The notes beneath the pieces are model-generated. The model did no database searches and had not been told where the DNA came from. It saw only the letters and a program-made list of their open reading frames with translations. Positions 46,476 to 64,000 of a DNA stretch of 64,000 nucleotides are shown piece after piece (positions within the stretch are counted from its first letter, which is position 1; every line of letters starts with the position of its first letter). A program made the translations under genes and the position numbers. Where the stretch lies: contig CAVPCQ010000029.1 of NCBI GenBank assembly GCA_963702425.1, positions 1 through 64,000 of the forward strand, in the 5' to 3' direction. Origin of the DNA: an uncultured Acidobacteriota bacterium. GTDB taxonomy: Bacteria; Acidobacteriota; Polarisedimenticolia; J045.

Positions 46476-48262
46476 GCCGCCGCCTGGTGATCGCCTTCCT
46501 CGCCGTCCTGGCGCTGGGCACCGCGGCCGCTCCGGCGCGGGCTGCCGACGCGCCGATCCAGCTCTCGGTCGGCAGCGCGTTCGCGGACTCCGTCGACCTG
46601 GCGGCGATCCGCGTCAGCGCGGTCCAGGAGGACGGCCGCGTCAAGACTTTCGACTCGCTGGCCCGCGAGCGGCTGAAGCTGGTCAACAGCTCGCGCGCGA
46701 TGCGCGAGATCGACCCGGTGCTGCTCTACCTGGACATGGTCCTGGTCCCCGAGCACTACGCCGGCACGAACGTCATCTTCGTCAAGAAGCCGATGATCCG
46801 GACGCAGATCACGCAGGGCGTGCGCAGCATCGTGCTGCCCGAGAACCGCCAGGGCGTGATCGCTGAGACCGAGCTGCAGCGGATCGAGCAGACCGGGCTG
46901 GTGTCGCCGATCTTCCTCGACCAGCCCGCGGTCCGGCAGGTGCTCGCGGCAATGGAGCGCGACCTGATGCGCACCAGCCGCGAGGTCAACGCGATTCAGG
47001 CCGCCCGCAGCCTGTCCGACGCGGGCGTGCTGTTGTCGCTCTGGCGCCCGGTGCCGCCGGTCGGGGGCAGCGAGACCGATCCCTGGCTGACGGTGGCGCA
47101 GGCCGCCCGCGGGATGATGAGCGCGCCGGGGCGCGCGATCCCGGCCGCGACCGGGCTCGCCGAGCGGAGCGCGGCGATCGGCGCAGCCTGGCAGTCGCTC
47201 GAGAACGCCTGGCGCTTCCAGGACGCCGCGGCCGCCGGCCAGGCGCTCAACACGCTGGCGCAGACCTTCGCGCTGGTGGAGCCGAGGCTCTATCCGGCGG
47301 CGGCGCGCCTGTCGTGGGAGCACTGGTACTACAAGAACGACAAGCTGACGATGGTCTGGCTGGTCTATTTCCTGGCCCTGCCGTTCCTGCTGATGGCCAC
47401 GGTCTACCGGTTCCGCTGGGCGCGGGTCGCCGGGCTGACGCTCTTCGTCACCGGCTTCGCGCTCCAGACCTTCTCGATCGTCCTGCGCTGGTGGCTGGCC
47501 GGGCGGATCCCGAACTCCAACATGTTCGAGGCGGTGACCGCCTCGGCGTGGTTCGGCGCGCTGCTGGCGATCGTGCTGGAGCTCGTCCTGCGGCGCTGGC
47601 CGGTCAAGAACCTGCCCGCGCTCGCGGCCTCCACCTATGCGATGTTCGCGCTGATGCTCGGGCACTTCATGCCGGTCACGCTCAACTCCGACATCTCCAC
47701 CGTCATGCCGGTGCTCGACCGCACGATCTGGCTCTACATCCACACCAACATGGTCATCGCCTCGTATGCGCTGATCTTCTTCGGCGGGGTGACGGCGATC
47801 CTCTATCTCGCGGGCCGGGCGCTGAACTCGTGGGCGACGTCGCCGCGCCTCGCCGAGGCCTGGGCCGGCACCGGCGGCACCGGGGCGATCCGTGGCGGCG
47901 CGGGCTCCCTGATCCTCGGGCGCGGCCTGGCCCCCGGCGACGAGAACCGCTCGGGGCTGGCCAAGTCGCTCGACGGCGCGACGATGATCTTCCTCGAGCT
48001 GGCCTTCATCACGCTCTGGGTCGGGACGATCCTCGGCGCGGTCTGGGCCTACTTCTCGTGGGGCCGTCCGTGGGGCTGGGATCCCAAGGAGGTCTTCGCG
48101 CTCAACACCTGGCTGGTCTTCCTGGTGCTGTTGCACGTCCGCTACAAGGTCAAGGACAAGGCGCTCTGGACCGCGATCCTGGCGGTGATCGGCTGCGCGG
48201 TGATGATCTTCAACTGGGTCGCCGTCAACTTCGTGATCGTCGGCCTGCACAGCTACGCGTAG
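46472..48262 (+). CDS. ccsA: cytochrome c biogenesis protein CcsA/ResC
   Basis: GRVKTFDS, WLYIHT, WWD motif WAYFSWGRPWGWDPKE, terminal GLHSYA; ATGA overlap. Confidence 0.9.
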   Translation: MSRRLVIAFLAVLALGTAAAPARAADAPIQLSVGSAFADSVDLAAIRVSAVQEDGRVKTFDSLARERLKLVNSSRAMREIDPVLLYLDMVLVPEHYAGTNVIFVKKPMIRTQITQGVRSIVLPENRQGVIAETELQRIEQTGLVSPIFLDQPAVRQVLAAMERDLMRTSREVNAIQAARSLSDAGVLLSLWRPVPPVGGSETDPWLTVAQAARGMMSAPGRAIPAATGLAERSAAIGAAWQSLENAWRFQDAAAAGQALNTLAQTFALVEPRLYPAAARLSWEHWYYKNDKLTMVWLVYFLALPFLLMATVYRFRWARVAGLTLFVTGFALQTFSIVLRWWLAGRIPNSNMFEAVTASAWFGALLAIVLELVLRRWPVKNLPALAASTYAMFALMLGHFMPVTLNSDISTVMPVLDRTIWLYIHTNMVIASYALIFFGGVTAILYLAGRALNSWATSPRLAEAWAGTGGTGAIRGGAGSLILGRGLAPGDENRSGLAKSLDGATMIFLELAFITLWVGTILGAVWAYFSWGRPWGWDPKEVFALNTWLVFLVLLHVRYKVKDKALWTAILAVIGCAVMIFNWVAVNFVIVGLHSYA

Positions 48263-48384
48263 GCGAGCCGGGGGCGCCGCTTCCGGCCGCGGGCATACCC
48301 CCGATGGCGAACGACGGGGGTACGCTGGTAAGGTCTTGCCTCCCCGAGACCCGCGCCGGTCCTGCCGGGCGACCCACGGAGCGC

Positions 48385-50736
48385 ATGGCGGTGACGACGC
48401 AAGAACCCCACGATCCCGAGTCCAGCCGGAAGCGTATCGAGGAGGCGCTCGAAGCGTTTCCGGGGCTCGCGGAGATGTTCGCGCGCGCGCTGATGGTAAG
48501 CCTGCACGCGCGCGGGGTAGCGACGGTCGACGAGATCTACGCCGAAGCACGCCGCCGGGCCGGCGGGGCGGGCGAGGACGAGCCGACGGACCTCTCCGAC
48601 GACAACGTGCAAGTTGCCCGGCGCTGGGACGAACTCGAGCGCCGGGAGATCGAGAACCTCACCGTCGAGAAGGCCGCCGCGACTTTCACGCCGGACGAGA
48701 TTGACGACCTCGTCAACCTGACCCGAAAACGCGACGAGGCCCAGAGCCTGGAGGAGATCGCGAATCTCTCGCAGGTGTCGATCCGCATGCTCGCCGAGGC
48801 TGTCAACCGGTTCTGCCGCTTTCCCGAGGGGCAGACGCAGATCCCCGAGTGGGAGTCGCTCGGGGTCCGCGTGGCGCTGATCCGTCACATCATCTCTGAC
48901 CAGCTCGAGTTCATCGGTCTCGCCAAGAAGCACTTCCGGATTCGTGACTTCCAGGATCTCCTCGAGCGGACCATCGGCGATGACCACCGCATGGGCCGGA
49001 TCGGCGGCAAGGCGGCCGGGATGATCCTCGCCAAGAGCATCCTCGAGCGCGCGCGCGCGGAGGATCCCAGCGCCCCCCAGATCCCGATCGCGCTCCCAGA
49101 TTCCTACTACCTGCGCTCGGACGTCATCGAGCAGTTCATGGATCACAACCAGCTCCATGAGCTGCAGAGCCAGAAGTACAAGCCGATCGAGACGATCCGC
49201 CAGGAATACCCGGTCATCCTGAACCTCTTCAAGAACGGCGAGTTCCCGGGTCACCTGATTGAGAAGTTGCGGCGGTTGCTCGGCAAGGTGGGTGACTCGC
49301 CGCTGATCGTGCGCTCCTCGTCGCTGCTCGAGGACCGCTTCGGCGCCACCTTCGCGGGGAAGTATCGCAGCGTCTTCCTTCCGAACCAGGGACCACACGA
49401 GGGCCGCCTCGTCCAGTTGATCGGCGCGATCTGCGAGGTCTTCGCAAGCATCTTCGCCCCCGACCCGATCAGCTACCGGCGCCGCCACAACCTGATCGAC
49501 TACGACGACCTCATGGCGGTACTGATCCAGACGGTTGTCGGGCTGCGCTACGGCCCGTATCTGCTGCCGAGCTGGGCCGGTGTGGCGTTCTCCAGCAACG
49601 AGTACCGCTGGAGCGCCAGGATCCGCCGCCAGGACGGGCTGGCCCGCGTCGTCTTCGGGCTCGGAACCCGCGCCGTGGACCGTGTCGCCTCGGACTTTCC
49701 GCGGATGCTCGCGCTCGGCATGCCGTCGCTGCGGCCGGTCGCCAGCCCGGCCGAGATCCGGCGCTACTCGCAGCGCTACGTCGACGCGATCAACATCGAA
49801 GAGAACCGCTTCGAGACCGTCCCGTTCACCGAGTTGCTCTCGCACGGTTCGTTCCCGGGCCTCGACCAGTTCGTGTCGATCTCCGGGGAGGACGGCTTCT
49901 ACAAGCCCACTGGCACACGGATCGACGCAGCGCCATCGGAGCTGGTCCTGACGTTCGACCGCTTCGCTCAGGAGTCGCCCTACCCGGCGTTCCTGAAGTG
50001 GATGCTGACCACACTCGAGAGGGCCTACGGCTGCCCGATGGACATCGAGTTCGCCCACGACGGCGAGAAATTTCACCTCTTGCAGTGCCGGCCCCAGGCC
50101 TGGCACGAGGAGGAGCGCGCGGTCTACATCCCGCGCAACATCCCCTCCGAGCGCCGGGTCTTCAGCGCGTCGCGTAACATCACCACCGGCTCCGTGCACG
50201 GGATCCAGTACGTCGTCCTCGTCGATCCGCGCGACTACGATTCGATCCAGACGGCGACTGAGCGGCAGCAGGTGGCACGCGTGATCGGACTGCTCAACGA
50301 GGAGCTCAAGGAGAAGGGCTTCATCCTGATGGGACCGGGGCGCTGGGGGTCGAACGACCTGCGGCTGGGGATCAAGATCGGTTACGCCGACATCAACAAC
50401 GCACGGATGCTGATCGAGATTGCGCGCGCGAAGGGGGATCAGGTCCCAGAAGTGTCGTTCGGAACGCACTTCTTCCAAGACCTCGTGGAGTCGGATATCC
50501 GCTACCTGGCGCTCTACCCCGACGATCCGGGCAGCGACTTCAACGAGCGCTTCCTCCACGGCTCTACCAACATGCTTCCGCAGTTTCTGCCGGAGCAGGC
50601 CGAGTGGGCGGGGGTCGTGAAGGTCGTGGATGTGCGGCGCGCCAGCGATGGCCTGTCACTCAACGTGGACATGGACGGCGACAGCCAGCAGGCGCTCGCG
50701 TACCTCGCTCCGGCAGACGACGCGCACCACCACTGA
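48385..50736 (+). CDS. PEP/pyruvate-binding (PPDK_N ATP-grasp) domain protein A, 783 aa
   Basis: IGGKAAG, IVRSSSLLED..FAGKY, GLGTRAV, DIEFA, LLQCRP, GPGRWGS, SFGTHFFQDLVE. Confidence 0.88.
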   Translation: MAVTTQEPHDPESSRKRIEEALEAFPGLAEMFARALMVSLHARGVATVDEIYAEARRRAGGAGEDEPTDLSDDNVQVARRWDELERREIENLTVEKAAATFTPDEIDDLVNLTRKRDEAQSLEEIANLSQVSIRMLAEAVNRFCRFPEGQTQIPEWESLGVRVALIRHIISDQLEFIGLAKKHFRIRDFQDLLERTIGDDHRMGRIGGKAAGMILAKSILERARAEDPSAPQIPIALPDSYYLRSDVIEQFMDHNQLHELQSQKYKPIETIRQEYPVILNLFKNGEFPGHLIEKLRRLLGKVGDSPLIVRSSSLLEDRFGATFAGKYRSVFLPNQGPHEGRLVQLIGAICEVFASIFAPDPISYRRRHNLIDYDDLMAVLIQTVVGLRYGPYLLPSWAGVAFSSNEYRWSARIRRQDGLARVVFGLGTRAVDRVASDFPRMLALGMPSLRPVASPAEIRRYSQRYVDAINIEENRFETVPFTELLSHGSFPGLDQFVSISGEDGFYKPTGTRIDAAPSELVLTFDRFAQESPYPAFLKWMLTTLERAYGCPMDIEFAHDGEKFHLLQCRPQAWHEEERAVYIPRNIPSERRVFSASRNITTGSVHGIQYVVLVDPRDYDSIQTATERQQVARVIGLLNEELKEKGFILMGPGRWGSNDLRLGIKIGYADINNARMLIEIARAKGDQVPEVSFGTHFFQDLVESDIRYLALYPDDPGSDFNERFLHGSTNMLPQFLPEQAEWAGVVKVVDVRRASDGLSLNVDMDGDSQQALAYLAPADDAHHH

Positions 50737-50793
50737 CGGATCGACGGCGCGACACGAGGCGCGCGGCGACCGGTCCGGAGGCAAGGGGCACCC

Positions 50794-51630
50794 GTGACGC
50801 GCTGCGCGTTCGTTTCGGATCTTCACGGCCGCGAGGCGCGGTATCAGGCGCTCTTCCGCTTCCTGTCCGATGCGCAGCCCGACGCGCTGTTCCTGGGAGG
50901 CGACCTGTTGCCGCGCGGTGCCAGCGCAGAGCGCTTCCTCGACGACCTGCTGGAGCCCGCCCTTCGGTCCGTCGGGGCCTCTGCCGACGACAGGACGCGC
51001 GTCTTCCTGCTGCTCGGGAACGACGACCCGGCGATCTACGAGGATGCCGCGCGCCGCGGCGAGGAACGCGGGGCGTGGACCTATCTCCACGCGCGTCGTG
51101 CGCGGCTCGCGGGCCGGGCGGTCTACGGTTACGCCTGCGTCCCGCCGACGCCATTCCTGTTGAAGGACTGGGAGCGATACGACGTCTCGCGTCATACCGA
51201 TCCCGGTTGCGTGTCGCCGGAAGCGGGGCGGCGTACCGTGCCGGTCGCGGAGAACGAGGTGCGCCACGGAACGATCGCCAAGGATCTTGACCGTCTGGCG
51301 GGAGGCGATGACCTGTCCGGCTCGGTCTGGCTGTTCCACTCTCCGCCGTGGAACTCACGTCTCGATCGCGCAGCGCTCGACGGGATGACCGTCGCGGGCG
51401 TGCCGCTCGACCTTCACGTCGGGAGCGTCGCGATCCGCCGCTTCCTCGAGCGTCACGCCGTGCACCTGGCGCTCCACGGCCACGTCCACGAGTCGGCACG
51501 ACTCACCGGCGCGTGGTGCGACCTGGTGGGGCCGACGACCTGCCTGTCCGCGGCGCACGACGGGCCAGAGCTGGCCGTGGTGCAATTCGACCTCGAGGCG
51601 CCCGGGGAAGCGACCCGCGCGCTGCTCTGA
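50794..51630 (+). CDS. calcineurin-like metallophosphoesterase
   Basis: SDLHG, GGDL, GNDD, FHSPP, HGHVHE. Confidence 0.88.
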   Translation: MTRCAFVSDLHGREARYQALFRFLSDAQPDALFLGGDLLPRGASAERFLDDLLEPALRSVGASADDRTRVFLLLGNDDPAIYEDAARRGEERGAWTYLHARRARLAGRAVYGYACVPPTPFLLKDWERYDVSRHTDPGCVSPEAGRRTVPVAENEVRHGTIAKDLDRLAGGDDLSGSVWLFHSPPWNSRLDRAALDGMTVAGVPLDLHVGSVAIRRFLERHAVHLALHGHVHESARLTGAWCDLVGPTTCLSAAHDGPELAVVQFDLEAPGEATRALL

Positions 51631-51656
51631 GATGCCCCGGCTGCGTGACGGACCCG

Positions 51657-54600
51657 TCAGAGGGGCCGCGCGGCGTCGGTCACCGCGCCGATCTTCACAG
51701 CGAAGCTGGTCCCCCGCGCGATGTCGTCGTCGGTGACCAGGTGGACGTCGAGCAGCCCGTTCGAGCGGTAGCCCGTGCGCAGGAAGTTCATCTCGTCGAG
51801 CGCACGGCTCCAGCCGTCCAGCCAGAGGCGGAGCGCGTCGATCTGCTCGGTCGAGGCCCGGTGGTGGACGAGCAGGTCGATGTCGCTGGCCGGCCCTGCG
51901 GTCGCATTCTTCGTGCTGCCGATCAGGTAGACCTTCACGACACCGAACCGTTCCAGGTCCAGCTCGCTCGCGATCCGCTGCGCCATCGCCAGTCGCCAGC
52001 GCCAGTGTGGTTCCGAGGCTCTTTCGCCACGTCCGGACGGCTCCTCTTCCGAGGCCGAAGTGGTTGCCGGCGAGGTCAGGTAGGCGACGGCACTGTCGAG
52101 TGCGGCGTTCATCAGGACGCGCGCGACGAGCCCGCCCGACGAGGCCGGAACGTCGATCACGCGGAGCACCCCGGCGAGGTGGGCGTACTCGGGGAGAATG
52201 CCGGCCAGGAGGTTGTCGGCGGCGTGCAGCCAGCGCTCGTTGAAAACGGCCCCCTCGTCGTCCGGATAGAGCGGCAGGTAGCGGATCCGCGCCTCGACGA
52301 GATCCTGGAAGAAGTGCGTCCCGAACGACAGGTCCGGCGCGTAGCCATCACGCCGGCGTGCCACCTCGACCAGCAAGGCGCAGTGCGAGATGTCGGAATA
52401 GGAGACGCTGACGCCCAGCTTGATATCGCCGCGGCTGCCCCAGCGGCCGGGTCCGATCAGCGCGAACTGCCGCTTGGGGAGCAGTTGGTTCAGGCGGCCG
52501 ACCGCACGGCCGATCGCCAGCAGATCGGCCCTGTCCTGGACCTGGGTGTAGGCCGCAGCATCGACGTAGACGAGGTGCGTCAGGTCGGGTACGCGGCCGT
52601 TCGACACGAAGCGATTCGCGGTGAACAGGACCCGCTCCGTGGGGAGGTCCTGCGGGATCGGCGAGGGGCGACTCTCGTCGGTGTCGCTCTGCGGGCGGCA
52701 CTGGAGCAGGTAGATGTCCGTTCCGTCCGACGCGAACTCGATGTCCACCGGGACGCCCAGCGCGCGCTCCAGCGTCTCGAGAACCGCCCTCATCTCGCCC
52801 AGGAACGGCGTGTCGGAAATCAGCCCCTCGAACGTCCAGACCAGATCTTCGCGCTCGAAGTCGACGCGGGTCCCCAGCGGCTTGCGCACATGCCCTGCGC
52901 TGTGCAGGGAGACCATGCGCGCCACCCCGGGTACCGCAGCGCCGTACTCGCGCAGGAGCGCGTCCACTCGGACCGTCTCGAAGCGATTGGTCTCGAGATT
53001 CAGCACGTCGAGCTTGCGCGGGGCGTAGTGCAGGACCTCGTCCGGCGTGCTGTTGGTGCGTAACCCCGGCTGGCCGGGCGCCACGAGCACCGGATAGTCG
53101 TCGGCCAGGCGATCGACCGCCCGGGTCCCGAGCCCCGGGACCAGCCGCAGCAGGCCGTCCTCGCGCCGGATCCGCGGCGACCAGCGAAACTCGTTGCGTG
53201 AGAATCCCACACCGGCGAAGGTCGGAGCGAAGTAGGGACCGATCCGCGTCCCCACCACCTCCTGGATCATGATGCCCATCTCCTCCTGGAAGTCGGACAG
53301 GCCGCGCTCCATGCGGTACTGGATCGGGTCGGGGCCGAAAGTCGAGGCGTAGACCTCGGCGACCGCGCCGGCGAGCGCCGCGAGGCGCTCCCCCTTGGCC
53401 CCCTGGTTGGCCAGGAAGAGGCTCTTGTACTTGCCCGGGAAGGCTGAGCCGGCGTGGTCCTCGAGCAGGCTCGAGCTGCGCACGATCACCGGGTGCTCGC
53501 CGACCTCGTCGAGCACCTGCGCGAGACCCCGCACGATCTCGGGAGGGAAGGGGCAGCTCTTGAAGGTATCGATGATGTGTGAGTACTCGAGCCGAACCTG
53601 GTTGATCTCCTTGTACTTCTGCTCCACGACGTCGTCGAGGTGGTTGTAGTGGATGAAGTCGAGAAGCACGTCGGAGGTGATGTACCACGTCCGCGGGACC
53701 CGGATGCGTCCCAGCGCCGGGATCTCGGCCGCCGCGCGATCGAGCACCTTTGCGGCCAGGAAGAGCCCGGCGCTCTTGCCGCCCAGCTTCCCCTGGCTCG
53801 CGCTCGTGAAGATCGTTCCCTGCAGCAGGCGGAAGAAGTCCTCGACCTCGAGGTAGCGCTTGGCGACATTGAGGTACTCGAGGTGCTCGGTGAAGAAGCG
53901 TCGTGCCAGAGCGACGATGACACTGCGCTCGGATGACTCCGGCAGCCTGGCCCCCTCCGGCGTCAGCTGGTGGTACCGGCGCAGCGCATCGGCGACCTCG
54001 GGCAGCGGGTGGTTGCGGTTGACGACCGCCTCCACCAGGAAGCTGAGCTTGTCGTTCTGGATCAGCCGCTGCAGGTACGCGAGCGTCTCGTCGTCGCCGA
54101 GATGGCTTGCCGCCAGCTCGACGATCCGGGTGCCGGTGGCGTCGTCGACCACCGAGAGCACGCGGCCGGTATCGGGACGATTCTCGTCGCGCTCCGTCCC
54201 GGCCTCGTCCGCGGGGACCCCCTCCCCCAGCTGGGCGCGCAGCTGCTCCGCCTCCTTGACCCCGCTCCAGCACAGGTGGTTGAGCACCTTGAGCGCGATC
54301 GAGCGGAACAGCGCGCGGTCCGTCTCGCGCAGCAGGTCAAGCACCACGCGCCACGCTACCTGGCGCTGCGCGGAGAGGTCCGCGCTCGCGATCTCGACGC
54401 CCTGGAGCACGTGCTTCATCCGCGCGAACATCACGAAGAAGCCGAGGCGCTCCGCGATCGTGGCGATCAGCTTGGTCTCCTCGGCGAGGAAGGGCCCTTC
54501 GTCCGCCGGTGGGGCGCTGCGGGTGTAGCCGACCGTCAGGTCGCCGAGGTGCTGCCCGTGTACGTGGATGTCGGCCCGCTGCTGCCACGGGGTCTCGGCC

Positions 54601-54827
54601 CAGTTGTCCGTCCGGTAGACGCTGTCCTCGAACTGCACCCGCGCGGCGCACCAGTCGGGAAACTGCCAGCCTGGCGGGATCGCGTTCACCACGGCGTGGA
54701 AGATGTCGTCGAGCGGGATCTCCGGGTGCGCGAGAATCTCCTCGATCCGGTACAGGCACTGGAGTTCCTTGTGGCGCTCGCGCAGAAACCAGATCAGCTT
54801 GTCCAGCGGCGGCTCGGGTCCAGTCAT
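51657..54827 (-). CDS. PEP/pyruvate-binding domain protein B with N-terminal GAF-like and C-terminal nucleotidyltransferase domains, 1056 aa
   Basis: LRERHKELQCLY..PPGWQFP..GPFLAEE (GAF-like); LGGKSAG, VRSSSLLED, QCRP, GTHFFQDLVE; YLIGSTKNATAGPASDIDLLV (GS-DxD). Confidence 0.88.
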   Translation of the reverse strand: MTGPEPPLDKLIWFLRERHKELQCLYRIEEILAHPEIPLDDIFHAVVNAIPPGWQFPDWCAARVQFEDSVYRTDNWAETPWQQRADIHVHGQHLGDLTVGYTRSAPPADEGPFLAEETKLIATIAERLGFFVMFARMKHVLQGVEIASADLSAQRQVAWRVVLDLLRETDRALFRSIALKVLNHLCWSGVKEAEQLRAQLGEGVPADEAGTERDENRPDTGRVLSVVDDATGTRIVELAASHLGDDETLAYLQRLIQNDKLSFLVEAVVNRNHPLPEVADALRRYHQLTPEGARLPESSERSVIVALARRFFTEHLEYLNVAKRYLEVEDFFRLLQGTIFTSASQGKLGGKSAGLFLAAKVLDRAAAEIPALGRIRVPRTWYITSDVLLDFIHYNHLDDVVEQKYKEINQVRLEYSHIIDTFKSCPFPPEIVRGLAQVLDEVGEHPVIVRSSSLLEDHAGSAFPGKYKSLFLANQGAKGERLAALAGAVAEVYASTFGPDPIQYRMERGLSDFQEEMGIMIQEVVGTRIGPYFAPTFAGVGFSRNEFRWSPRIRREDGLLRLVPGLGTRAVDRLADDYPVLVAPGQPGLRTNSTPDEVLHYAPRKLDVLNLETNRFETVRVDALLREYGAAVPGVARMVSLHSAGHVRKPLGTRVDFEREDLVWTFEGLISDTPFLGEMRAVLETLERALGVPVDIEFASDGTDIYLLQCRPQSDTDESRPSPIPQDLPTERVLFTANRFVSNGRVPDLTHLVYVDAAAYTQVQDRADLLAIGRAVGRLNQLLPKRQFALIGPGRWGSRGDIKLGVSVSYSDISHCALLVEVARRRDGYAPDLSFGTHFFQDLVEARIRYLPLYPDDEGAVFNERWLHAADNLLAGILPEYAHLAGVLRVIDVPASSGGLVARVLMNAALDSAVAYLTSPATTSASEEEPSGRGERASEPHWRWRLAMAQRIASELDLERFGVVKVYLIGSTKNATAGPASDIDLLVHHRASTEQIDALRLWLDGWSRALDEMNFLRTGYRSNGLLDVHLVTDDDIARGTSFAVKIGAVTDAARPL

Positions 54828-56545
54828 CGGCGAATCACCCCCTGGCCGGTTCGCCCGTCGACGCGGATCGCCAACGGTGCGGGAAGTCGGATCCAGCGCA
54901 GCCGCGCCGTCTCGCGCAGCGCGGGCTGCGCGTCGAGCCAGTCCCAGTCGATGCTTCCGTCGGTCGCGGAGAAATAGAGCACGCGGAAGCTGGTGACATT
55001 GTGGAAGAAGTGCGCTCCCTGGCTCGGCCGGAACGCCATCCCTGGCAGCATCGCCTCGACGATCACGCGCGCCCCCGAGATCTGTGCGAACGCGACCGGG
55101 ACGCCGCCTGCCGGGTCGGAGGTTCCCCAGCGGCCGAAGCCGACGAGCAGGTAAGGCCGGCCGGCGGCCAGCAACTCCTGGTTCAACGCGTCGAGTTCCT
55201 GCGCGATGCCGGGCGTATCGCCGGCCTCGAACGCCTCGCGCCGAACGACGACCACGTCGGCAACGTCCGGCGCCGCACCGTTGCCCAGCACACCGTGCGC
55301 GGCGAGCAGCAACCCGGCCGGCTCGAGATCCGCGGCCGAGATCTCGACGCGCTCCGCCGAGACCATCATCGGCCGCACCTGCAGGAGGCCCAGCCGTGCA
55401 GCGGACCCGCCTTCCGGGTCGAGCGTGAAAGCCAGTTCGATCTCGACGTCAATGGCGAATTCGGCTCGCGCGGCGTCGAGCAGGGCGACGACGGCGTCGC
55501 TGAACGGGAGCATGCGCGTCTGCCGCAGTGGTGCGAAGTCGAGCATCCGCGGCCCCGGGCGCGAGATCCCGGGGACGAGGCGGTCATCCGCGGCGAGGTA
55601 TGTCGACGCCGTCCAGGTCAGCGTGCCGTCGCTCTCGGCTGCGGCGAGGTCGGCCTGGACGAGGAACTCGGTCTCGTGCGTCGGGTCGTACGCGGGGGGC
55701 TTTCCCATGTTGACGGCCCAGAACGCCGTTTGCCCCTCTTTCACCAGGGCGCGCAGCGAGGTGTAGGGAGGGGCCGTACGGGGGTAGCGCGGGCAGTAGG
55801 CCCATCCCACGCCGTCGTCGACGATCGTGCGGCCCAGCCCGAGTGCCAGTTCCGCGACGCCATCGTCCGGCTTCGCGTGCCCCGACGGATAGAAGTTGAA
55901 AGACCGTCCGACGGCGGAGACGTCGGGGTAGAAACGCTCTCCGTGACGGCGCCCGACCACTTCCTGGACGATCACGGCCATCCGTTCTTCGGTCGGGTCG
56001 CGGCGCGTGGCAGCGATGTACTGGCGCGCGTCCCGGAACCACGTCGACGCGAAGACGAGCTTGATCGCCTCGACCAGTCCGCGGAAGCGTGACGCCGCGT
56101 CCGGCTGGTTGTTGGCGATCATCTTCGTGGCGTAGACGCCGGCGAACGGCTGCTCGAGCGCGTCCTCGAGCAGGCTCGACGAGCGGACGGCGAGCGGCGC
56201 TCTCGCCTCCGTCGCAAGCGCCTGCAGGTCGCCCAGCAGATCGGTCGGGAGCCGGCCGCGCTGGAAGGCCATCGCGATCACGTCGTCCCGCTCGTCGCGC
56301 AACCCGGCGACCGCGTCCAAGCCGTTCAGCTCGAGGAAGCGCTCGAAGCAGTCGGCGGCGAGGACCGTCATCCGCGGGATCGAGATCTCGAGCCCTTCCG
56401 GGGCGAACCGCTCGGCCAGCGAGGCGACGACCCGCTGCGCGCGCACGAGTCCCGAGGCCTTTCCGCCCAAGGGGCCGTCGCCCAGCCGCGTGATCGCCGG
56501 ACCGCGGAGGAACCCCCCTCGGGACAGGCGCGGAATTCCGTCCAC
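54824..56545 (-). CDS. PEP/pyruvate-binding domain protein C, core only (~573 aa)
   Basis: LGGKASG, AVRSSSLLED..FAGVY, GLGRTIV, EIELA, LQVRP, GFGRWGT, SQGAHFFHNVTS; GTG at 56545 (ORF open to 56596); ATGA overlap with protein B. Confidence 0.87.
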   Translation of the reverse strand: MDGIPRLSRGGFLRGPAITRLGDGPLGGKASGLVRAQRVVASLAERFAPEGLEISIPRMTVLAADCFERFLELNGLDAVAGLRDERDDVIAMAFQRGRLPTDLLGDLQALATEARAPLAVRSSSLLEDALEQPFAGVYATKMIANNQPDAASRFRGLVEAIKLVFASTWFRDARQYIAATRRDPTEERMAVIVQEVVGRRHGERFYPDVSAVGRSFNFYPSGHAKPDDGVAELALGLGRTIVDDGVGWAYCPRYPRTAPPYTSLRALVKEGQTAFWAVNMGKPPAYDPTHETEFLVQADLAAAESDGTLTWTASTYLAADDRLVPGISRPGPRMLDFAPLRQTRMLPFSDAVVALLDAARAEFAIDVEIELAFTLDPEGGSAARLGLLQVRPMMVSAERVEISAADLEPAGLLLAAHGVLGNGAAPDVADVVVVRREAFEAGDTPGIAQELDALNQELLAAGRPYLLVGFGRWGTSDPAGGVPVAFAQISGARVIVEAMLPGMAFRPSQGAHFFHNVTSFRVLYFSATDGSIDWDWLDAQPALRETARLRWIRLPAPLAIRVDGRTGQGVIRR

Positions 56546-56561
56546 TGGCCGGCCCCCGTTC

Positions 56562-57857
56562 TCAGGCCCAGCCGCGCTCGCGGCAGGCCTCGGCAACGCG
56601 CGCCACGGCGATGACCAGCGCTGCCTCGCGCAACGGCAGCCGATCGCGGCGCGCCGCTGCGAATACCGCGTGCGCGGCGGTCGTCATCCGGGTGTCGAGC
56701 CGCGCCAGCACCTCGTCCTTCTCCCAGTAGAAGTTCGCGTTGCTCTGCACCTGCTCGAAGTAGCTGCAGGTGACGCCGCCGGAGTTCGCCAGCGCATCGG
56801 GGATCACGGTGACCCCCCGTTCGGCGAGCACGGCGCCGGCCTCGGCCGAGGTCGGCGCATCGGCTCCCTCGAGCACGAAGCGCACCGCCGGATGGACCTT
56901 GGCGACGTTCTCCGCCGTCAGCTGGTTCTCGATCGCGGCCGGGATCAGCACGTCCACTGGCTGCTCGAGCCACGCGGCGCCCGGGAGCAGTTCATATCCC
57001 AGGTCCCGCGCCGCGTCGCGATCGATGGATCCGAAACGATCGGCGACGCCGCGCAGCACCGCCAGGTCCACCCCCTGCTCACGACGGAAGCAGACCGCCT
57101 CGCCGGCGGCCTGGTCCCAGCACGACACCGCGAGGACCTTGCCGCCGACCTGTGTCAGCAGTTCGATCGCGTGCTGGGCGACGTTCCCGAACCCCTGCAC
57201 GCTGGCGGCGACGTTCCGGATCGGCTGCCCCAACTCGGCCAGGGCCTCGCGCAGCACGAAGACCAGCCCGTATCCGGCGGCCTCGGTCCGACCGAGCGAG
57301 CCTCCCAGCGCGACCGGCTTGCCGGTGATGAACCCCGGATCGCGCCGCCCGGCCATCGTCTCGTACTCGTCGAGCATCCAGAGCATGTGGGGCGCGCCGG
57401 TCATGATGTCGGGCGCGGCGACATCGACCCGCGGGCCGAGCTCGCGGAACAACGCACGCACCCAGCCGCGGCAGAGCCGCTGCAGCTCCGCTGCCGACAG
57501 GTCGTGCGGGTCGCAGGCTACCCCGCCGTGGCTGCCGCCGAGCGGGATGTCCACGATCGCGCTCTTCCACGACATCCCCATCGCCAGCGCGCGCGCGGCG
57601 TCGAGCGACTCCTGTGGGTGGAAACGGATTCCCCCCTTGGCCGGACCGCGCGCGTCGTTGTGCTGGACGCGGAAACCGCGGAAGACGCGCGTCCGGCCGT
57701 CGTCCATGGCGACCGGAACCGCGAACCGGTGCTCGCGCAGCGGCCAGCGCAGCAGTTCGCGGAGCGACTCGTCGAGGCCGAGGAAGGTCGCAACCCGGTC
57801 GAACTGGTCCTGCGCGGCGTGGAAGAACTGGTAGGGTGCCGGATGTCCGTCGCTCAT
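56562..57857 (-). CDS. Glu/Leu/Phe/Val dehydrogenase homologue with catalytic Lys replaced by His
   Basis: GPAKGGIRFHP, MSWK, GGSHGG (canonical GGGKGG), APD, TGKP, QGFGNV, IPAAIEN, EGAD (canonical EGAN), LANSGGV; alternative start 57869. Confidence 0.9.
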   Translation of the reverse strand: MSDGHPAPYQFFHAAQDQFDRVATFLGLDESLRELLRWPLREHRFAVPVAMDDGRTRVFRGFRVQHNDARGPAKGGIRFHPQESLDAARALAMGMSWKSAIVDIPLGGSHGGVACDPHDLSAAELQRLCRGWVRALFRELGPRVDVAAPDIMTGAPHMLWMLDEYETMAGRRDPGFITGKPVALGGSLGRTEAAGYGLVFVLREALAELGQPIRNVAASVQGFGNVAQHAIELLTQVGGKVLAVSCWDQAAGEAVCFRREQGVDLAVLRGVADRFGSIDRDAARDLGYELLPGAAWLEQPVDVLIPAAIENQLTAENVAKVHPAVRFVLEGADAPTSAEAGAVLAERGVTVIPDALANSGGVTCSYFEQVQSNANFYWEKDEVLARLDTRMTTAAHAVFAAARRDRLPLREAALVIAVARVAEACRERGWA

Positions 57858-57913
57858 GGCCGTATCCATCCTCCGCCAGGGCGAACCCGCCGGTCGCTTA
57901 CCAGACAGGGTAG

Positions 57914-59431
<1,518 letters not shown>

Positions 59432-59459
59432 TCGCTGGCTTGGGAAGGCTCGTGGGGGG

Positions 59460-59491
59460 GGGGCGGCCGGCGACGGCCGCCCCTTCTCTTT
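59460..59491 (+). terminator. intrinsic terminator of gdhA
   Basis: GGGGCGGCCG-GCGA-CGGCCGCCCC followed by TTCTCTTT. Confidence 0.8.
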
Positions 59492-59494
59492 GCG

Positions 59495-62470
59495 TCAAGG
59501 CTTCAGGATCACGCCGCGCCCCGAGCGCCCGTCGATCCGCACGTCGAGCGGGTCGCCGAGCCGCACGTGGCGCAGGTACGCGGTCTCGGTCTCCGCGCGG
59601 TGAGCCGCCAGCCAGTCGAAGTCCACGAACCCGCTTCCGCGGCGCTGATGGACGGTCAGGTAACCGGTGCCGAAGGACGTGATGTTGTGGAAGAAGTGGC
59701 TTCCCTCCGACGGCGTCACCTCGACGTCGTCGAGGTCGGTCTCGATGATCGCGCGTGCCCCGGCGATCATCCGCCACTCGACCGGGATCCCCAGCCAGTT
59801 GTCCGAAGTTCCCCAGCGGCCGGGTCCGATCAACAGGTAGGGGCGATTCTCCGCGACCAGCCGGCGATTGATCGTCTCGACCTCGCGCGCGATGTCGACC
59901 GTCCGGGCGCGGTCGAACGCCTCTCCCCGGATGTAGACGATGTCCCGGATCTCGGCCACGTGCCCGCGGCCGAGAGCCTGCGGCGAGTCGCAGAGCACCG
60001 CCTCGCGGCCGCTGTTCTCGAGCAGCCGGTCGATGTCGTCGGATCCGACATCGACCACCAGCGGCCGGATCTGCAGGACGCCGAACTCCGCCGGCTCGTC
60101 CGTCGTTTCGGGCAGGTTGACCGCGAACTCGATCTCGACCGGGCAGCTCATCGCCTGCTGGCCGAGCGCGAGAAGTGTCCGCAACACCGCGGCCAGCGGG
60201 AAGAGCCGCATCCGGAGGATCGGGTCGAAGGTGACGACGCGGATCCCGGCCCGGCCGACGCCGGGGTAGAAGGCGTCGTCGTCGCGCGAGTAGGTCGAGG
60301 CGACGCGGCCGAGCGTGCCGTCGCGCTCGGCGTGTGCGAGATCGAGGCGCACCAGGGCATCCTCATGCGTCCGGTCGGGGAAGTCGGCCCCGGCTGACAT
60401 GTCCAGCGCCCAGAACTGGCGCTGCGAGCTCTTCAGCGTGTTGGCGGTCCCGGCGAACTGCAGCACGGCGCGCGGCGCGCCGGGGGAGAAGCGCACGGCT
60501 CGGCCGCCGTCCACGACCGTGCGCCCCAGCCCCAGCGCCACCGCCGCGACGCCATCCTCCGGCTCGAGCCCGAGCATCGGGTAGTAGTTGTAGGACTGCG
60601 CCACGCCGGCGAAGTCGGGATAGAAGTGCGTGCCGCGCGCGCGCCCCACGAGCTGCTGCACGACGACCGCCATCTTCTCCTCTTCGACGCGGTGGGGGGT
60701 CTGCTGCAGGTAGGCCTTGGAGCTCCACGAGTAGGTCGAGGCGTAGACCAGTTTGATCGCGCCGGCGAGCTGCCGCAGGCGCACCTCCGGGTCGTCCGCG
60801 TTGTTGGCCAACATGATCGTCCGGAAGATTCCGGCGAACGGCTGGTCGTGCGAGTCCTCGAGCAGGCTCGAGGAGCGGACCGCGAGCGGGTAGCGCGCCG
60901 TCTCGAGGAAGGCGACGAGGTCCCGTTCGATCGGCGGGGGGAGCGGCGCGGCGAGAAACGCGGCCTCGATCTCCTCGTCCGGCGCGTCGGAGAAGGCCAG
61001 CCGTCCCAGCCCCGGGGTCTGCATGAACTCGCCGAACACCCCGGTCCCCAGCACCGTCGTCGGCGGCACGAACAGGCGCACCCCGGGCGGGACGTGCCCC
61101 TCGCGCTGCCGCCCGAGCAACGAGTGGATGAACCCCAGGCCGCGCCCCTTCCCCCCCATCGAGCCGCTCCCGAGCCGGCTGAACGCCTCGGCGTCGGCCG
61201 GCGCCTGCCGCGCGAAGTCGGCGACGACGCCACGGCGCGTCTCGGCCAGCAGGCCCGAGAAGGCCTCGATCAGGTACCGACGCAGCGCGTCCGTGCTCTC
61301 GAACTCCGACACCTTGCGCGGGCGGAACCGGGCGGCCAGCGCGAACTCCGTGCGCGCCATGCACCAGTTCGAGAAGTGGTTGCGCGAGGCGTGATAGCGC
61401 AGCGACGCCTCGGGGACCTGCGCCAGCGCGCCGGGCATCGCAGCCAGGTCCTTGACGCGCAGCAACTCGTGGCCGGTCGGCGGGTCGACGAATACGAAAT
61501 CGCCGAAGCCGAGGTTCCGGCGGATGAAGTGGCGCAACTCCTCGAGCAGTCGCGGCGAGCGCTTGCTCGAGAAGCCCGCCCCCAGCGCGAGGGCCTTCTC
61601 GCGCAGGCCGGCGTCGGAGGACTGCACCAGGACCGGGAGGTCGGGGACAGCCTGGCGGACCTGCCGCAGCAGTTCGATCCCCGCCTCGGGATCGGACCGC
61701 CCGCCGCGCGGGAAGCGGGCGTCGGTGATGATCCCCAGGATCGAGGGCCGGTAGCGCTCGAACAGGTCGCGGGCCTCCTCGAACGTCTCCGCCAGCAGGA
61801 TCTTCGGCCGCGCCCGCATCCGCCGCAGCCGCTCGCGCGCGTTGACGCCGTCGGCCAGCAGCGCCTGCCCCTGCGCGACCAGCTCGGTGTAGAGCATCGG
61901 CAGGTACGAGGAGTAGAAGCGCACCGAGTTCTCGACCAGCAGGATCATCCGCACGCCGGCGAGGGCGATGTCGCGCTCGGTGTTCCGCTGGTCTTCGATG
62001 TACTTGACGATCGCCAGGAACAGCGCCACGTCGCCGCGCCAGACGAACACCTGGTCGACCGCGGGCGGACCGGGCTGCGCCTTGACGCGGTGCGCCTCGC
62101 GCTGGTTGTCGGCGAGCATCACGACCGGCAAGTCGGGGAAGCGGGCCTTCACCTGCTCGCTGAACTGCCGGACCTCCATCCCGCCGAGCCGGGCCATCGT
62201 GATGACCAGGTCGAACGGCCGAGCTTCGAGCAGCGCGAGCGCCTCCTCGGCCGTCGCGGCCAGCGTGATGCGCGGCGCGAAGCTCAGCTTCAGCTCGTAG
62301 AACTCGGCGTCGAGGCTCTCGGAGAGCTGCCCGTCCTCTTCGAGGATGAACGAGTCGTAGAGGCTGGCGACCAGCAGGACCTCGTGGACCCGGAACGCCA
62401 TCAGCTGGCGGAAGACCGCCTCTTCGGGGTCGATCTCGTGCGCCGTCCGTCCGAGGGGTTCCTCGCTCAT
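59495..62470 (-). CDS. PEP/pyruvate-binding domain protein D with two N-terminal receiver-like domains, 991 aa
   Basis: ATG at 62470 after GGAGG; VLLVASLYD..FDLVITM (REC1), ILLVEN..GIITDARFP..QSS..K (REC2), MGGKGRG, AVRSSSLLED, LQIRP, GPGRWGT, SEGSHFFHNITS. Confidence 0.88.
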   Translation of the reverse strand: MSEEPLGRTAHEIDPEEAVFRQLMAFRVHEVLLVASLYDSFILEEDGQLSESLDAEFYELKLSFAPRITLAATAEEALALLEARPFDLVITMARLGGMEVRQFSEQVKARFPDLPVVMLADNQREAHRVKAQPGPPAVDQVFVWRGDVALFLAIVKYIEDQRNTERDIALAGVRMILLVENSVRFYSSYLPMLYTELVAQGQALLADGVNARERLRRMRARPKILLAETFEEARDLFERYRPSILGIITDARFPRGGRSDPEAGIELLRQVRQAVPDLPVLVQSSDAGLREKALALGAGFSSKRSPRLLEELRHFIRRNLGFGDFVFVDPPTGHELLRVKDLAAMPGALAQVPEASLRYHASRNHFSNWCMARTEFALAARFRPRKVSEFESTDALRRYLIEAFSGLLAETRRGVVADFARQAPADAEAFSRLGSGSMGGKGRGLGFIHSLLGRQREGHVPPGVRLFVPPTTVLGTGVFGEFMQTPGLGRLAFSDAPDEEIEAAFLAAPLPPPIERDLVAFLETARYPLAVRSSSLLEDSHDQPFAGIFRTIMLANNADDPEVRLRQLAGAIKLVYASTYSWSSKAYLQQTPHRVEEEKMAVVVQQLVGRARGTHFYPDFAGVAQSYNYYPMLGLEPEDGVAAVALGLGRTVVDGGRAVRFSPGAPRAVLQFAGTANTLKSSQRQFWALDMSAGADFPDRTHEDALVRLDLAHAERDGTLGRVASTYSRDDDAFYPGVGRAGIRVVTFDPILRMRLFPLAAVLRTLLALGQQAMSCPVEIEFAVNLPETTDEPAEFGVLQIRPLVVDVGSDDIDRLLENSGREAVLCDSPQALGRGHVAEIRDIVYIRGEAFDRARTVDIAREVETINRRLVAENRPYLLIGPGRWGTSDNWLGIPVEWRMIAGARAIIETDLDDVEVTPSEGSHFFHNITSFGTGYLTVHQRRGSGFVDFDWLAAHRAETETAYLRHVRLGDPLDVRIDGRSGRGVILKP

Positions 62471-62493
62471 CGCGCCTCCGCAACGTGCCCGTG

Positions 62494-64000
62494 CTACTTC
62501 GCGGCGGCACCCTCCGGCCGCAGATAGCGCTCCAGTTGCTCGGCGATCCGGCGGTGCAGGTGCAGCCGTGCCGGGTTGCCCGGGATCCCGTGATTCTTGT
62601 TGGGGTAGAGCTGCAGGTCGTACGGTTTCCCGGCCAGGTAGAGCTTCTCGGCCAGCTGGAGCGTGTTCTGCACGTGCACGTTGTCGTCGCTGGTGCCGTG
62701 GATCAGCAGCAGCGCGCCGCCGAGCTTGTCGGCCTGGTTGACGGACGACGAGTCGCGGTAGCCGTCGGGGTTCCCGGAGGGCAGCTTCAGGTAGCGCTCG
62801 GTGTAGGCCGAGTCGTACAGCAGCCAGTTGGTCACCGGCGCGACTGCGGCGCCGACCTTGAAGACCCCCGGCGCGTTGGTCAGCGCGTAGGTCGTCATGT
62901 AGCCGCCGTACGACCAGCCCCAGATTCCGATCCGCTCGCCGTCCACGAAGGGGAGCGACTTGAGGTACTCGACGCCGACCAGCTGGTCCTCCAGCTCGAT
63001 CTTGCCGAAGCGCTTCAGCAGGGCCCGCTCGAAGGCCCGCTCGCGGCCGCCGGAGCCGCGGTTGTCGATCGAGAAGACGAGGGTACCGCGCCCGGCGAGG
63101 TAGCTGTGGAACATCGTGTACGAGCGCGCCCAGGCGTCGGAGACGACCTGCGGGCCGGGGCCGCCGTAGACGTAGACGACGACCGGGTACTTCTTCGCCG
63201 GGTCGAAGTCGGCGGGCTTGAGCAGGCTGGCGTGCAGCGTGGTGCCGTCCTTCGCCTTCAGGGTGAGGAACTCCTGCGTCCCGATCGCGTACTCGAACCA
63301 CGGCGCCTTGCCGTTGTCGATCAGCGTCGCCTTGCGCCGCCCCGCGGCGTCGATCAGGTAGGTCGACGGGGGGACGAGCGCCGCGGAGAAGCTGTCGACC
63401 GCGAAGCGGTTCCCCGGCGCCATCTCGGTGACGTAGTGGGTGCCCTTTTCTTCGGTCAGGCGCTTGAAGCCGGAGCCGTCGAGCTGCACGCGGTAGAGTT
63501 GCAGCTCGAGCACGTTCTTCTGCTTCCCGACGAAGAAGACCGTGCCCGCGGCCTCGTCGAGGCCGACGACGGCAGAGACGTTCCACGGTCCGGAGGTGAG
63601 CTGCCGGATCGGCCTGCCGGCGGCGTCATGGAGACAAAGGTGCCGGTTGCCGTCGCGCTCGGAGGACCACAGGAAGCGCCCGTCGGCGAGAAAACGCAGG
63701 TCGTCGTGCAGGTTGATCCACGCGGCGTCGGTCTCGACGAGCAGCGGCGTCGAGACGCCGGTCGCACGGTCGAGCAGCGTCAGCTGCAGCCGCGTCTGGA
63801 GCCGGTCGATGACCTGGTACCAGGCCGCGTTGCCGTTCGGCGTCCAGCCGACGCGCACGAGGTAGGTCTCGCCATTCGGCCACTTCAGCTCGTGGGCCAG
63901 GGCGCGCCCGTCGGGCTCCGGGACGACGGAGACGACGCGCAGCGACGGGATCGGGTTCGGGTCTCCGGCCTTCGGGTAGGGGCTCGAGGTGACGACCGGC
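62494..64000 (-). CDS. S9B dipeptidyl peptidase IV family protein, 5' end outside the window
   Basis: YPKAG, YVYGGP, DNRG, GWSYGG nucleophile, HGTSDDNVH, YPNKNH. Confidence 0.93.
   Translation of the reverse strand, partial: PVVTSSPYPKAGDPNPIPSLRVVSVVPEPDGRALAHELKWPNGETYLVRVGWTPNGNAAWYQVIDRLQTRLQLTLLDRATGVSTPLLVETDAAWINLHDDLRFLADGRFLWSSERDGNRHLCLHDAAGRPIRQLTSGPWNVSAVVGLDEAAGTVFFVGKQKNVLELQLYRVQLDGSGFKRLTEEKGTHYVTEMAPGNRFAVDSFSAALVPPSTYLIDAAGRRKATLIDNGKAPWFEYAIGTQEFLTLKAKDGTTLHASLLKPADFDPAKKYPVVVYVYGGPGPQVVSDAWARSYTMFHSYLAGRGTLVFSIDNRGSGGRERAFERALLKRFGKIELEDQLVGVEYLKSLPFVDGERIGIWGWSYGGYMTTYALTNAPGVFKVGAAVAPVTNWLLYDSAYTERYLKLPSGNPDGYRDSSSVNQADKLGGALLLIHGTSDDNVHVQNTLQLAEKLYLAGKPYDLQLYPNKNHGIPGNPARLHLHRRIAEQLERYLRPEGAAAK

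Follow-up and report, generated by a model that had tools for sequence, protein, structure and literature searches.

Four genes for proteins resembling phosphoenolpyruvate (PEP) synthase are clustered with two glutamate dehydrogenase (GDH) genes and a metallophosphoesterase (MPE) gene at positions 48385-62470 of a 64,000-nt stretch (hereafter the window) of contig CAVPCQ010000029.1 from an uncultured bacterium of the Acidobacteriota, and the locus raises the question of what such enzymes do beside GDH. An earlier note, made from the sequence alone, had described this seven-gene cluster, and all of its genes were found as claimed by Pfam matches and coordinates. The four proteins, here called A, B, C and D, represent an uncharacterised enzyme family in which a PPDK_N-type ATP-grasp domain is followed by a new domain of approximately 180 aa with an invariant His, and GDH is the only conserved genomic partner of the family. 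The cluster consists of two conserved modules joined together, one composed of gdhA and D and the other of the second GDH gene (GDH2), C and B with a convergent MPE gene. We consider that the members of this family may modify GDH at the expense of ATP and under the control of signals, the modification being erased by MPE, and give this reading a probability of approximately 0.4.

The ATP-grasp domain PF01326 (PPDK_N) was detected in all four paralogs (E 8.6e-52 to 2.4e-25), which are A (48385-50736 on the + strand, 783 aa, E 8.6e-52), B (51657-54827 on the - strand, 1056 aa, for which the gene list gives E 4.5e-58), C (54824-56596 on the - strand, approximately 560-590 aa, E 2.4e-25) and D (59495-62470 on the - strand, 991 aa, E 1.6e-33). 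When the four were aligned, GGK, VRSSSLLED, IE.A, Q.RP, GRWG and G.HFF were unchanged among them, and RSS..ED, E, Q.R and the C-terminal G.GR.G...H-F-F were unchanged in 60 of 60 family members. Judging from these motifs, the ATP site is intact in all four paralogs. They form two pairs, with identities to A of 42% for B, 27% for C and 28% for D. Protein A has an N-terminal region of approximately 195 aa without any family match, followed by the ATP-grasp domain and the new C-terminal domain, and C is the minimal form consisting of the latter two domains only. The chain ends with the new domain in A, C and D, and with a nucleotidyltransferase (NTase) in B, the ATP-grasp domain of which is encoded at approximately 52704-53810.

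The earlier note had stated that these proteins keep the dikinase nucleotide motifs, lack the TIM barrel, and are not ordinary PEP synthases. The first two statements held, as the motifs were invariant in the four proteins and neither PF00391 (the PEP-utilizer His domain, or swivel domain) nor PF02896 (the PEP/pyruvate TIM barrel) matched A, B, C or D at E<=0.01. The genome-wide search for PF00391 gave matches only on contigs C9 and C6, and none on the contig of the window. The best NCBIfam score among the four was 60.9 bits, against cut-offs of 598-883 for PEP synthase, rifampin phosphotransferase and PigC/RedH. Besides the four PPDK_N genes of this cluster, the genome (5.1 Mb, 42 contigs) has a fifth and last one on contig C9, a full-length gene of the pyruvate phosphate dikinase (PPDK) type with a PEP-utilizer domain. 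The proteins might still be ordinary or alternative PEP synthases or PPDKs, located near gdh since glutamate catabolism feeds gluconeogenesis, and both the presence of PPDK_N and the name 'phosphoenolpyruvate synthase' given to Bacteroides orthologs would agree with this; with the His domain and the barrel both missing, the scores far below the cut-offs, and a distinct PPDK-type gene of full length elsewhere in the genome, we regard it as very improbable. The records of the family are named 'hypothetical protein', 'PEP/pyruvate-binding domain-containing protein' or 'phosphoenolpyruvate synthase', the last being a widespread mis-annotation that is corrected here.

The nearest solved chains found by profile were those of rifampin phosphotransferase (5HV1/5FBS, deposited under the name 'phosphoenolpyruvate synthase') and of PEP synthases, and these matches (E 3.9e-14 to 2e-13 for 5HV1/5FBS) covered only the first approximately 150 residues of the ATP-grasp domain. 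The family shares with PEP synthase and PPDK a homologous ATP-grasp domain with GGK, RSS..ED, E and Q.R, and a His domain directly after it, but it has neither the PF00391 swivel nor the PF02896 barrel, its C-terminal domain is unrelated by profile, and it adds sensor or receiver domains. Rifampin phosphotransferase and PigC/RedH are also PPDK_N enzymes devoid of the barrel. They possess a canonical swivel His domain and a dedicated small-molecule-binding domain, whereas neither was detectable in the present family, the genes of which are tied to GDH.

The new domain starts directly after the Q.RP end of the ATP-grasp domain in all four paralogs. It is encoded on the - strand at 52053-52703 in B (His codon 52314-52316), 54827-55357 in C (His codon 55010-55012) and 59498-60073 in D (His codon 59696-59698), and in A, on the + strand, the His codon is at 50467-50469. 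The residues unchanged over 39-60 members were G.GR(W)G(S).D, E and (P)S.G.HFF, and the candidate phospho-acceptor His was unchanged in 60 of 60 sequences. The Pfam search with the C-terminal domains of the four matched nothing at E<=10. The best hit of a 39-sequence profile among PDB sequences was a longin domain with E 0.013, which was judged to be due to chance, and the neighbours of residues 405-585 of homolog P0032 in the ESM Atlas belonged to the same family only. With the profile of the C-terminal domain, matches among 1.84 billion cluster representatives amounted to 2575 clusters (50% identity) at E<=1e-3, of which 790 reached E<=1e-30; the newly defined domain is thus that of a large family.

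The AlphaFold2 model of C, made with a 60-sequence alignment, showed a pLDDT of 89.8 and a pTM of 0.90. Its C-terminal domain was modelled as an alpha/beta domain with GRWG just after the strand 453-458, and the His (residue 500 of the modelled C segment) begins a helix that is preceded by a Gly-rich, less confident loop region. In known phospho-His sites, the His is located at the start of a helix after a Gly-rich loop. The predicted position was thus counted in favour of a phospho-His-like arrangement, and the new domain may carry a phospho-His. As for the phospho-His enzymes of the earlier note, an invariant His is present in the new domain, but the known swivel domain is lacking, PF00391 being unmatched, and phospho-His chemistry is putative.

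The conservation of gene order was examined in the same class, where searches of 41 genomes, including the own genome (G000) and the unpublished G034, gave matches to C in 27 and to GDH2 in 40, and 20 loci fetched from these searches were annotated. gdhA followed by D on the same strand was found in L002, L009-L014 and L016, and with the window, gdhA and D were adjacent in nine of nine loci fetched for that pairing. The order GDH2-C-B-MPE with a convergent MPE was found in L002, L004, L005, L007, L041 and L093, the last of which is from Bacteroidota, and a version lacking C (GDH2-B-MPE) in L006, L064 and L069. L015 contained C-B at a contig end and L008 a partial copy, and L002 (genome G030) had the gene order of the window for everything but A. 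MPE orthologs (48-59% identity) adjoined B in L002, L005, L007, L041, L064, L069 and L093, and MPE was convergent with B in 7 of the 11 B loci having flanking sequence. MPE was also directly downstream of D in L041, L064 and L069 and of A in the window, which bore out the phosphoesterase link claimed in the earlier note and, together with the canonical receiver in D, supported its regulatory character. D, MPE, B and GDH2 were present together in L041, L064 and L069, with C as well in L041, and L067 contained D and B with GDH2 further away.

The linkage extended across phyla. A pattern scan of 185,579 species genomes gave 644 relatives, the best 80 of which were kept; these are the top-scoring relatives of a GDH-linked query, not a random sample. 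They consisted of 79 D-type members (REC-REC-linker-core, where REC is a receiver) and one C-type member. GDH was present in 51 of these 79 D-type loci, and within 1 kb in 40, while chance would be expected to give approximately 1.3% per 21.7-kb interval, as calculated from three GDH matches in 5.1 Mb. In 30 of the 79, gdhA was directly upstream on the same strand. A GDH of another class followed D on the same strand in 8 cases and gdhA did so in 3; gdhA was divergent in 5, and the arrangement was convergent in 2. One locus may be counted under more than one arrangement. Neighbour counts in high-GC loci were made without greedy calls of open reading frames (ORFs), which give spurious long frames. 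The GDH-adjacent D loci belonged to at least 11 phyla, namely Acidobacteriota, Gemmatimonadota, Eisenbacteria, Bacteroidota, Ignavibacteriota, Actinomycetota, Bdellovibrionota, Gammaproteobacteria, Calditrichota, Myxococcota and Planctomycetota. The enrichment of gdh near the family, on which the earlier note had made its proposal depend, was thus found, and such proteins did occur beside gdh in other phyla, as it had stated. This recurrence of gene order across phyla indicates that the cluster exceeds chance, and the genomic link of the family to GDH is a matter of observation. Separately, four Ignavibacteriota loci (L034, L036, L040 and L057) showed a tandem array of gdhA-D-gdhA-D followed by a GDH of another class, in which gdhA-D was duplicated as a unit.

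A sample less biased than the best 80 was provided by 121 evenly drawn Bacteroidales genomes, among which 110 had the family (E<=1e-40) and 115 had a GDH domain. Two types of paralog were found there, the D-type of approximately 990 aa and a second type of approximately 1150 aa. Among the matches listed, 150 of 169 for the family and 150 of 184 for GDH, at least 27 of 93 D-type and at least 30 of 57 second-type members were located within 5 kb of a GDH match, both counts being lower bounds. The second type, as seen at L131:8740-12201 and L132:5314-8775, has 1153 aa with an extra N-terminal region of approximately 165 aa, and its receiver and DUF5752 matches were weak. In one complete Bacteroidales genome, the second type, the D-type and gdh followed one another on one strand, next to genes for a 2-oxoacid:ferredoxin oxidoreductase. 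The Bacteroides orthologs showed 87-98% mutual identity and formed clusters of thousands of member sequences. At L131:4258-16605 and L086:5680-8538, family genes were also located beside genes for 2-oxoacid:ferredoxin oxidoreductase (POR_N/POR and TPP_enzyme_C), another enzyme of the 2-oxoglutarate node.

Single-chain fusions of C and B (P0227, P0228, P0229 and P0306, 1484-1654 aa) were found among the best 150 matches of the C-terminal-domain profile, each having two PPDK_N and two C-terminal domains, and P0229 also a terminal NTase. In the window, the start of B and the stop of C overlap by 4 nt. These two facts indicate that family members work as units. The open frame of C overlaps with GDH2 as well. 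As for joined GDH and D, 4 of 102 long GDH-like proteins carried PF01326 (P0219, P0221, P0223 and P0225). P0219, P0223 and P0225 were rejected as apparent frameshift, deletion or assembly chimeras in which part of one partner was missing, and P0221, an in-frame read-through from GDH to D on a single contig, was not counted as evidence. P0223, represented by five member sequences on three contigs, has the N-terminal two thirds of D and the C-terminal half of GDH joined at a shared TGYG, and may have arisen by deletion within a tandem gdhA-D array.

The two GDHs of the window belong to different classes with approximately 33% identity. gdhA (approximately 58088-59431 on the + strand, 447 aa, frame open from 57938) is divergent from GDH2 and convergent with D. 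It scored 779 bits against a cut-off of 536 for NADP-specific GDH (NCBIfam PRK09414), and its catalytic motifs, including the catalytic Lys, Asp and the substrate-binding Lys residues, were intact. GDH2 (56562-57869 on the - strand, 435 aa) has both ELFV dehydrogenase domains in Pfam and scored 378 bits against an NCBIfam cut-off of 750. It reads GGSHGG where GGGKGG is expected, with the His codon CAC at 57528-57530, and is further changed at three conserved active-site positions (P to A, N to D and A to S). In contrast, GDH2 orthologs from other genomes kept the catalytic Lys in 10 of 10 cases (GG[GAS]KGG), and the other covered sites were canonical. These orthologs form a distinct clade with a 6-residue insertion, in which members are 56-64% identical across phyla. 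Because 10 of 10 orthologs keep the Lys, the pseudo-GDH is a local state of the genome of the window and not a feature of the system. The pair of an active and a pseudo-GDH proposed in the earlier note therefore exists in the window, but does not characterise the system as such. The genome also encodes a third GDH on contig C33 (63232-64458, locus L001:1215-2459) with canonical motifs and no family member adjacent, which showed 51% identity to GDH2 in the genome search and 49% by tblastn.

The N-terminal part of D (61199-62470) consists of a pseudo-receiver, a canonical receiver and a linker domain. In the second receiver (Response_reg, E 3e-10), E180, D250, S284 and K303 were unchanged and D181 nearly so in 18 sequences from many phyla, with the acceptor Asp250 encoded at 61721-61723, and in the first receiver both the acidic pair and the acceptor Asp were missing. 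By its domains D is thus a response regulator, with an intact second receiver and the ATP-grasp/His unit as the output. The linker between the receiver and the ATP-grasp domain (residues approximately 320-425) is a conserved domain with the pattern FGDFVF...YH..RNHFS.W...R.EF, and its match to DUF5752 was weak, with E 0.09 in D of the window and E 1e-4 to 1e-5 in relatives; this linker domain is itself uncharacterised.

Protein B begins with a sensor-like region of approximately 340 aa (53811-54827) that is conserved across phyla. The GAF domain assigned to B in the earlier note could not be confirmed, as this region matched no Pfam family at E<=10, and its 9-sequence profile against PDB sequences gave a best E of 1.6 to an unrelated protein. 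At the C-terminus, B has a pol-beta-type NTase (51657-52052; NTP_transf_2, PF01909, E 1.8e-07), in which the GS...DxD motif reads IGSTKNATAGPASDIDLLV in translation, and the NTase was present in B-type members only. Of the regulatory accessory domains proposed, the receiver in D and the NTase in B were therefore found, and the GAF in B was not. The analogy to GlnE and GlnD was not supported either; B shares with these nucleotidylation systems a pol-beta-type NTase, but it matches the generic PF01909 and not the GlnE or GlnD families. Pfam detected no DNA-binding domain in the family proteins.

MPE (50794-51630 on the + strand, 278 aa), a calcineurin-like metallophosphoesterase (Metallophos, E 2.5e-12), starts 57 nt 3' of A. 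It has the motifs DxH, GD, GNDD, H and GHxH, and SDLHG, GGDL, GNDD, FHSPP and HGHVHE were kept across eight MPE orthologs where covered. GNDD corresponds to GNH[ED] with His replaced by Asp. The comparison with PDB by sequence found no solved homolog of MPE.

With regard to function, we propose that the family modifies GDH. A nitrogen or carbon cue would be received through receiver phosphorylation in D or ligand sensing in B, and the ATP-grasp domain would load the invariant His from ATP, as in PEP synthase, PPDK and rifampin phosphotransferase. From the His, the phosphoryl group would then be transferred either to the GDH encoded nearby or to a ligand bound by it. Such modification would turn the GDH isoenzymes, anabolic as well as catabolic, on or off, the anabolic NADP-GDH and the second GDH being switched so that a futile cycle is avoided, and MPE would reverse the mark. 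The phosphorylation of the His, the role of GDH as acceptor and that of MPE as eraser are all putative. The most specific form of the proposal, a new class of protein-modifying 'dikinase' in which the His of the new domain phosphorylates GDH isoenzymes under two-component or ligand control with MPE as the eraser, is tentative and less likely than not.

Several observations weigh against GDH modification. For phospho-His carriage by the new domain, which we infer from sequence, the domain found no counterpart in Pfam or PDB, and comparison by hhalign with a canonical swivel (PEP-utilizer) profile, built of 21 sequences from the lineage's own PPDK and Enzyme I genes, gave a probability of only 0.2%. 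In 28 of the 79 D-type loci no GDH was present in the locus, and among the Bacteroidales matches considered above, 66 of the 93 D-type members were not within 5 kb of a listed GDH match, although both listings were cut short and many of the contigs are short. No GDH or MPE was found near the orthologs of A in three of three related loci (L017-L019), no histidine kinase recurred beside D among the flanking ORFs of the D loci without GDH, and no convincing natural GDH-D fusion was found among the 102 long GDH-like proteins. D also adjoins two GDH classes that are approximately 33% identical to each other. This linkage does not favour a single docking surface, and a tie to the GDH reaction or to its metabolites would explain it no less well than a specific contact between proteins.

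The last point leads to an alternative in which GDH is a metabolic partner. Here the substrate of the ATP-grasp/His enzymes, to be phosphorylated or ligated, would be a small molecule from the glutamate/2-oxoglutarate/ammonium node that GDH supplies or takes, and MPE would hydrolyse what is formed. The outcome might be a GDH reaction coupled to ATP, or a phosphorylated metabolite that serves as a signal. Besides the linkage of D to two classes, the characterised barrel-less relatives found by profile all act on small molecules or glucans, sub-threshold PigC/RedH matches were obtained with NCBIfam, and the GDH2 orthologs keep all catalytic residues. The translational coupling of GDH2-C-B suggests stoichiometric complexes, and the GNDD motif of MPE would also be in line with such chemistry, as many MPEs in which the motif reads GN[CD]D are phosphodiesterases. 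However, in C, the minimal protein, no domain for substrate binding can be recognised besides the ATP-grasp domain and the new domain, and the receiver and sensor-like modules point to signalling. Moreover, GDH2 of the window has lost the catalytic Lys while C and B are intact, so that GDH2 catalysis is seemingly dispensable for C and B. On balance we consider a metabolic partnership unlikely, though deserving serious attention.

The D loci without GDH bear on a further alternative, namely that the signalling output acts on a target other than GDH, such as another enzyme of nitrogen metabolism, a transcription factor or a PII-like protein, and that adjacency to gdh reflects co-regulation, as in glnA-ntrBC. 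D is an orphan response regulator, and the spacing of approximately 100-300 nt between gdhA and D leaves room for an own promoter or attenuator, both of which would suit this explanation. On the other hand, no other gene family recurred broadly in the 81 ORFs that flank D in the 28 GDH-less loci; NAD synthase, bestrophin-like and Metallophos genes recurred as isolated pairs only, and the recurrence of HypD/AIRS/LUD genes was limited to two related Acidobacteriaceae loci. As the family also lacks a DNA-binding domain, and the linkage reaches a second GDH class with other members, C and B, a non-GDH target seems to us rather improbable.

Protein A and the rest of the cluster differ in their history. 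Orthologs of A with 67-74% identity were present in L017 and L018 of the same genus and L019 of the same family. In the same-genus genomes, A has beside it a gene for a thioredoxin/NHL protein, together with the S9 peptidase and CcsA/ResB genes known from the flanks of the window's cluster, here arranged differently. These flanking S9 peptidase and CcsA/ResB genes adjoin each other in a same-genus genome. The searches of four same-genus genomes gave no C-type, D-type, GDH2-clade or gdhA-type match. The block from MPE to D (50794-62470) is therefore an insertion or a lineage-specific retention. Its G+C was 0.693 compared with 0.723 for the remainder of the window, and that of gdhA was 0.632. 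A is probably a resident paralog beside which the block landed, and thus only a neighbour. Its membership in the GDH-linked system, assumed in the earlier note, is uncertain and was not supported by the three loci of its orthologs. The absence of the block from same-genus genomes, by which it is apparently mobile, also raised the idea that paralogs had come together by chance, or that the block is an anti-phage defence island, with no functional tie to GDH in either case, in line with weak PADLOC matches of MPE (PDC-S10, E 6.6e-07) and the NTase (PDC-S09, E 7.9e-06). Since PADLOC matched neither the four ATP-grasp proteins nor the two GDHs, the family is near-universal in Bacteroidales, unlike defence genes, and the counts of cross-phylum GDH synteny largely refute it, we give this idea hardly any weight.

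The proposed switch has working analogies among known systems. Enzyme I of the phosphotransferase system, driven by PEP, transfers a phosphoryl group from its His domain to a protein, and EI-Ntr (PtsP) has a nitrogen-sensing GAF domain; the proposed family would use ATP where Enzyme I uses PEP. AceK, of a different fold, carries out the reversible phosphorylation of a central dehydrogenase. In Thermus thermophilus, GdhA and GdhB form a regulatory/catalytic hetero-complex of two GDH paralogs encoded side by side, one of which is poorly active. In contrast, the two GDHs here are of different classes with approximately 33% identity, and the inactive state is found in this genome only. The REC-PPDK architecture, that of D, is included in a census of response regulators as 'Bacteroides-like' (Galperin et al. 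2018, PMC5847659), and the entry, in the excerpted text, gives the architecture only, with no function, GDH link or description of the C-terminal domain. According to the excerpted text of another report (PMC4001038), the nitrate-resistance locus Dde_0602-0605 of Desulfovibrio G20 encodes a histidine kinase, an NtrX-like regulator, a PPDK-like protein and a dual-specificity phosphatase; this PPDK-like protein has a canonical mobile domain, unlike the present family, and is a loose, possible functional parallel. Full-text searches outside subscription journals and supplements found no literature that ties the family to GDH or characterises it. The proteins are of a known kind, as barrel-less ATP-grasp relatives of dikinases and response regulators with an enzymatic output, and there is a real chance that they constitute a new covalent switch.

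GDH is located at the junction of carbon and nitrogen metabolism, and to our knowledge, post-translational control of bacterial GDH has been described in few lineages only. If the proposal is true, a reversible covalent switch at the glutamate/2-oxoglutarate node would operate in the majority of Bacteroidales and in numerous phyla of soil and sediment, and it would be a candidate for how gut Bacteroidota and many environmental phyla alternate between ammonium assimilation and amino-acid catabolism. The GDH of Bacteroides fragilis was reportedly found in the 1980s to undergo reversible inactivation in vivo, and a dikinase of the proposed type could explain this.

The G+C content of the window is 71%, which gives many spurious ORFs, and the real genes were separated from them by Pfam matches. 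In 48000-62800, the count of predicted promoter and terminator sites was not above that in shuffled sequence. The cluster is flanked upstream by ResB/CcsA-like cytochrome c assembly genes and downstream by an S9/DPP-IV peptidase gene.

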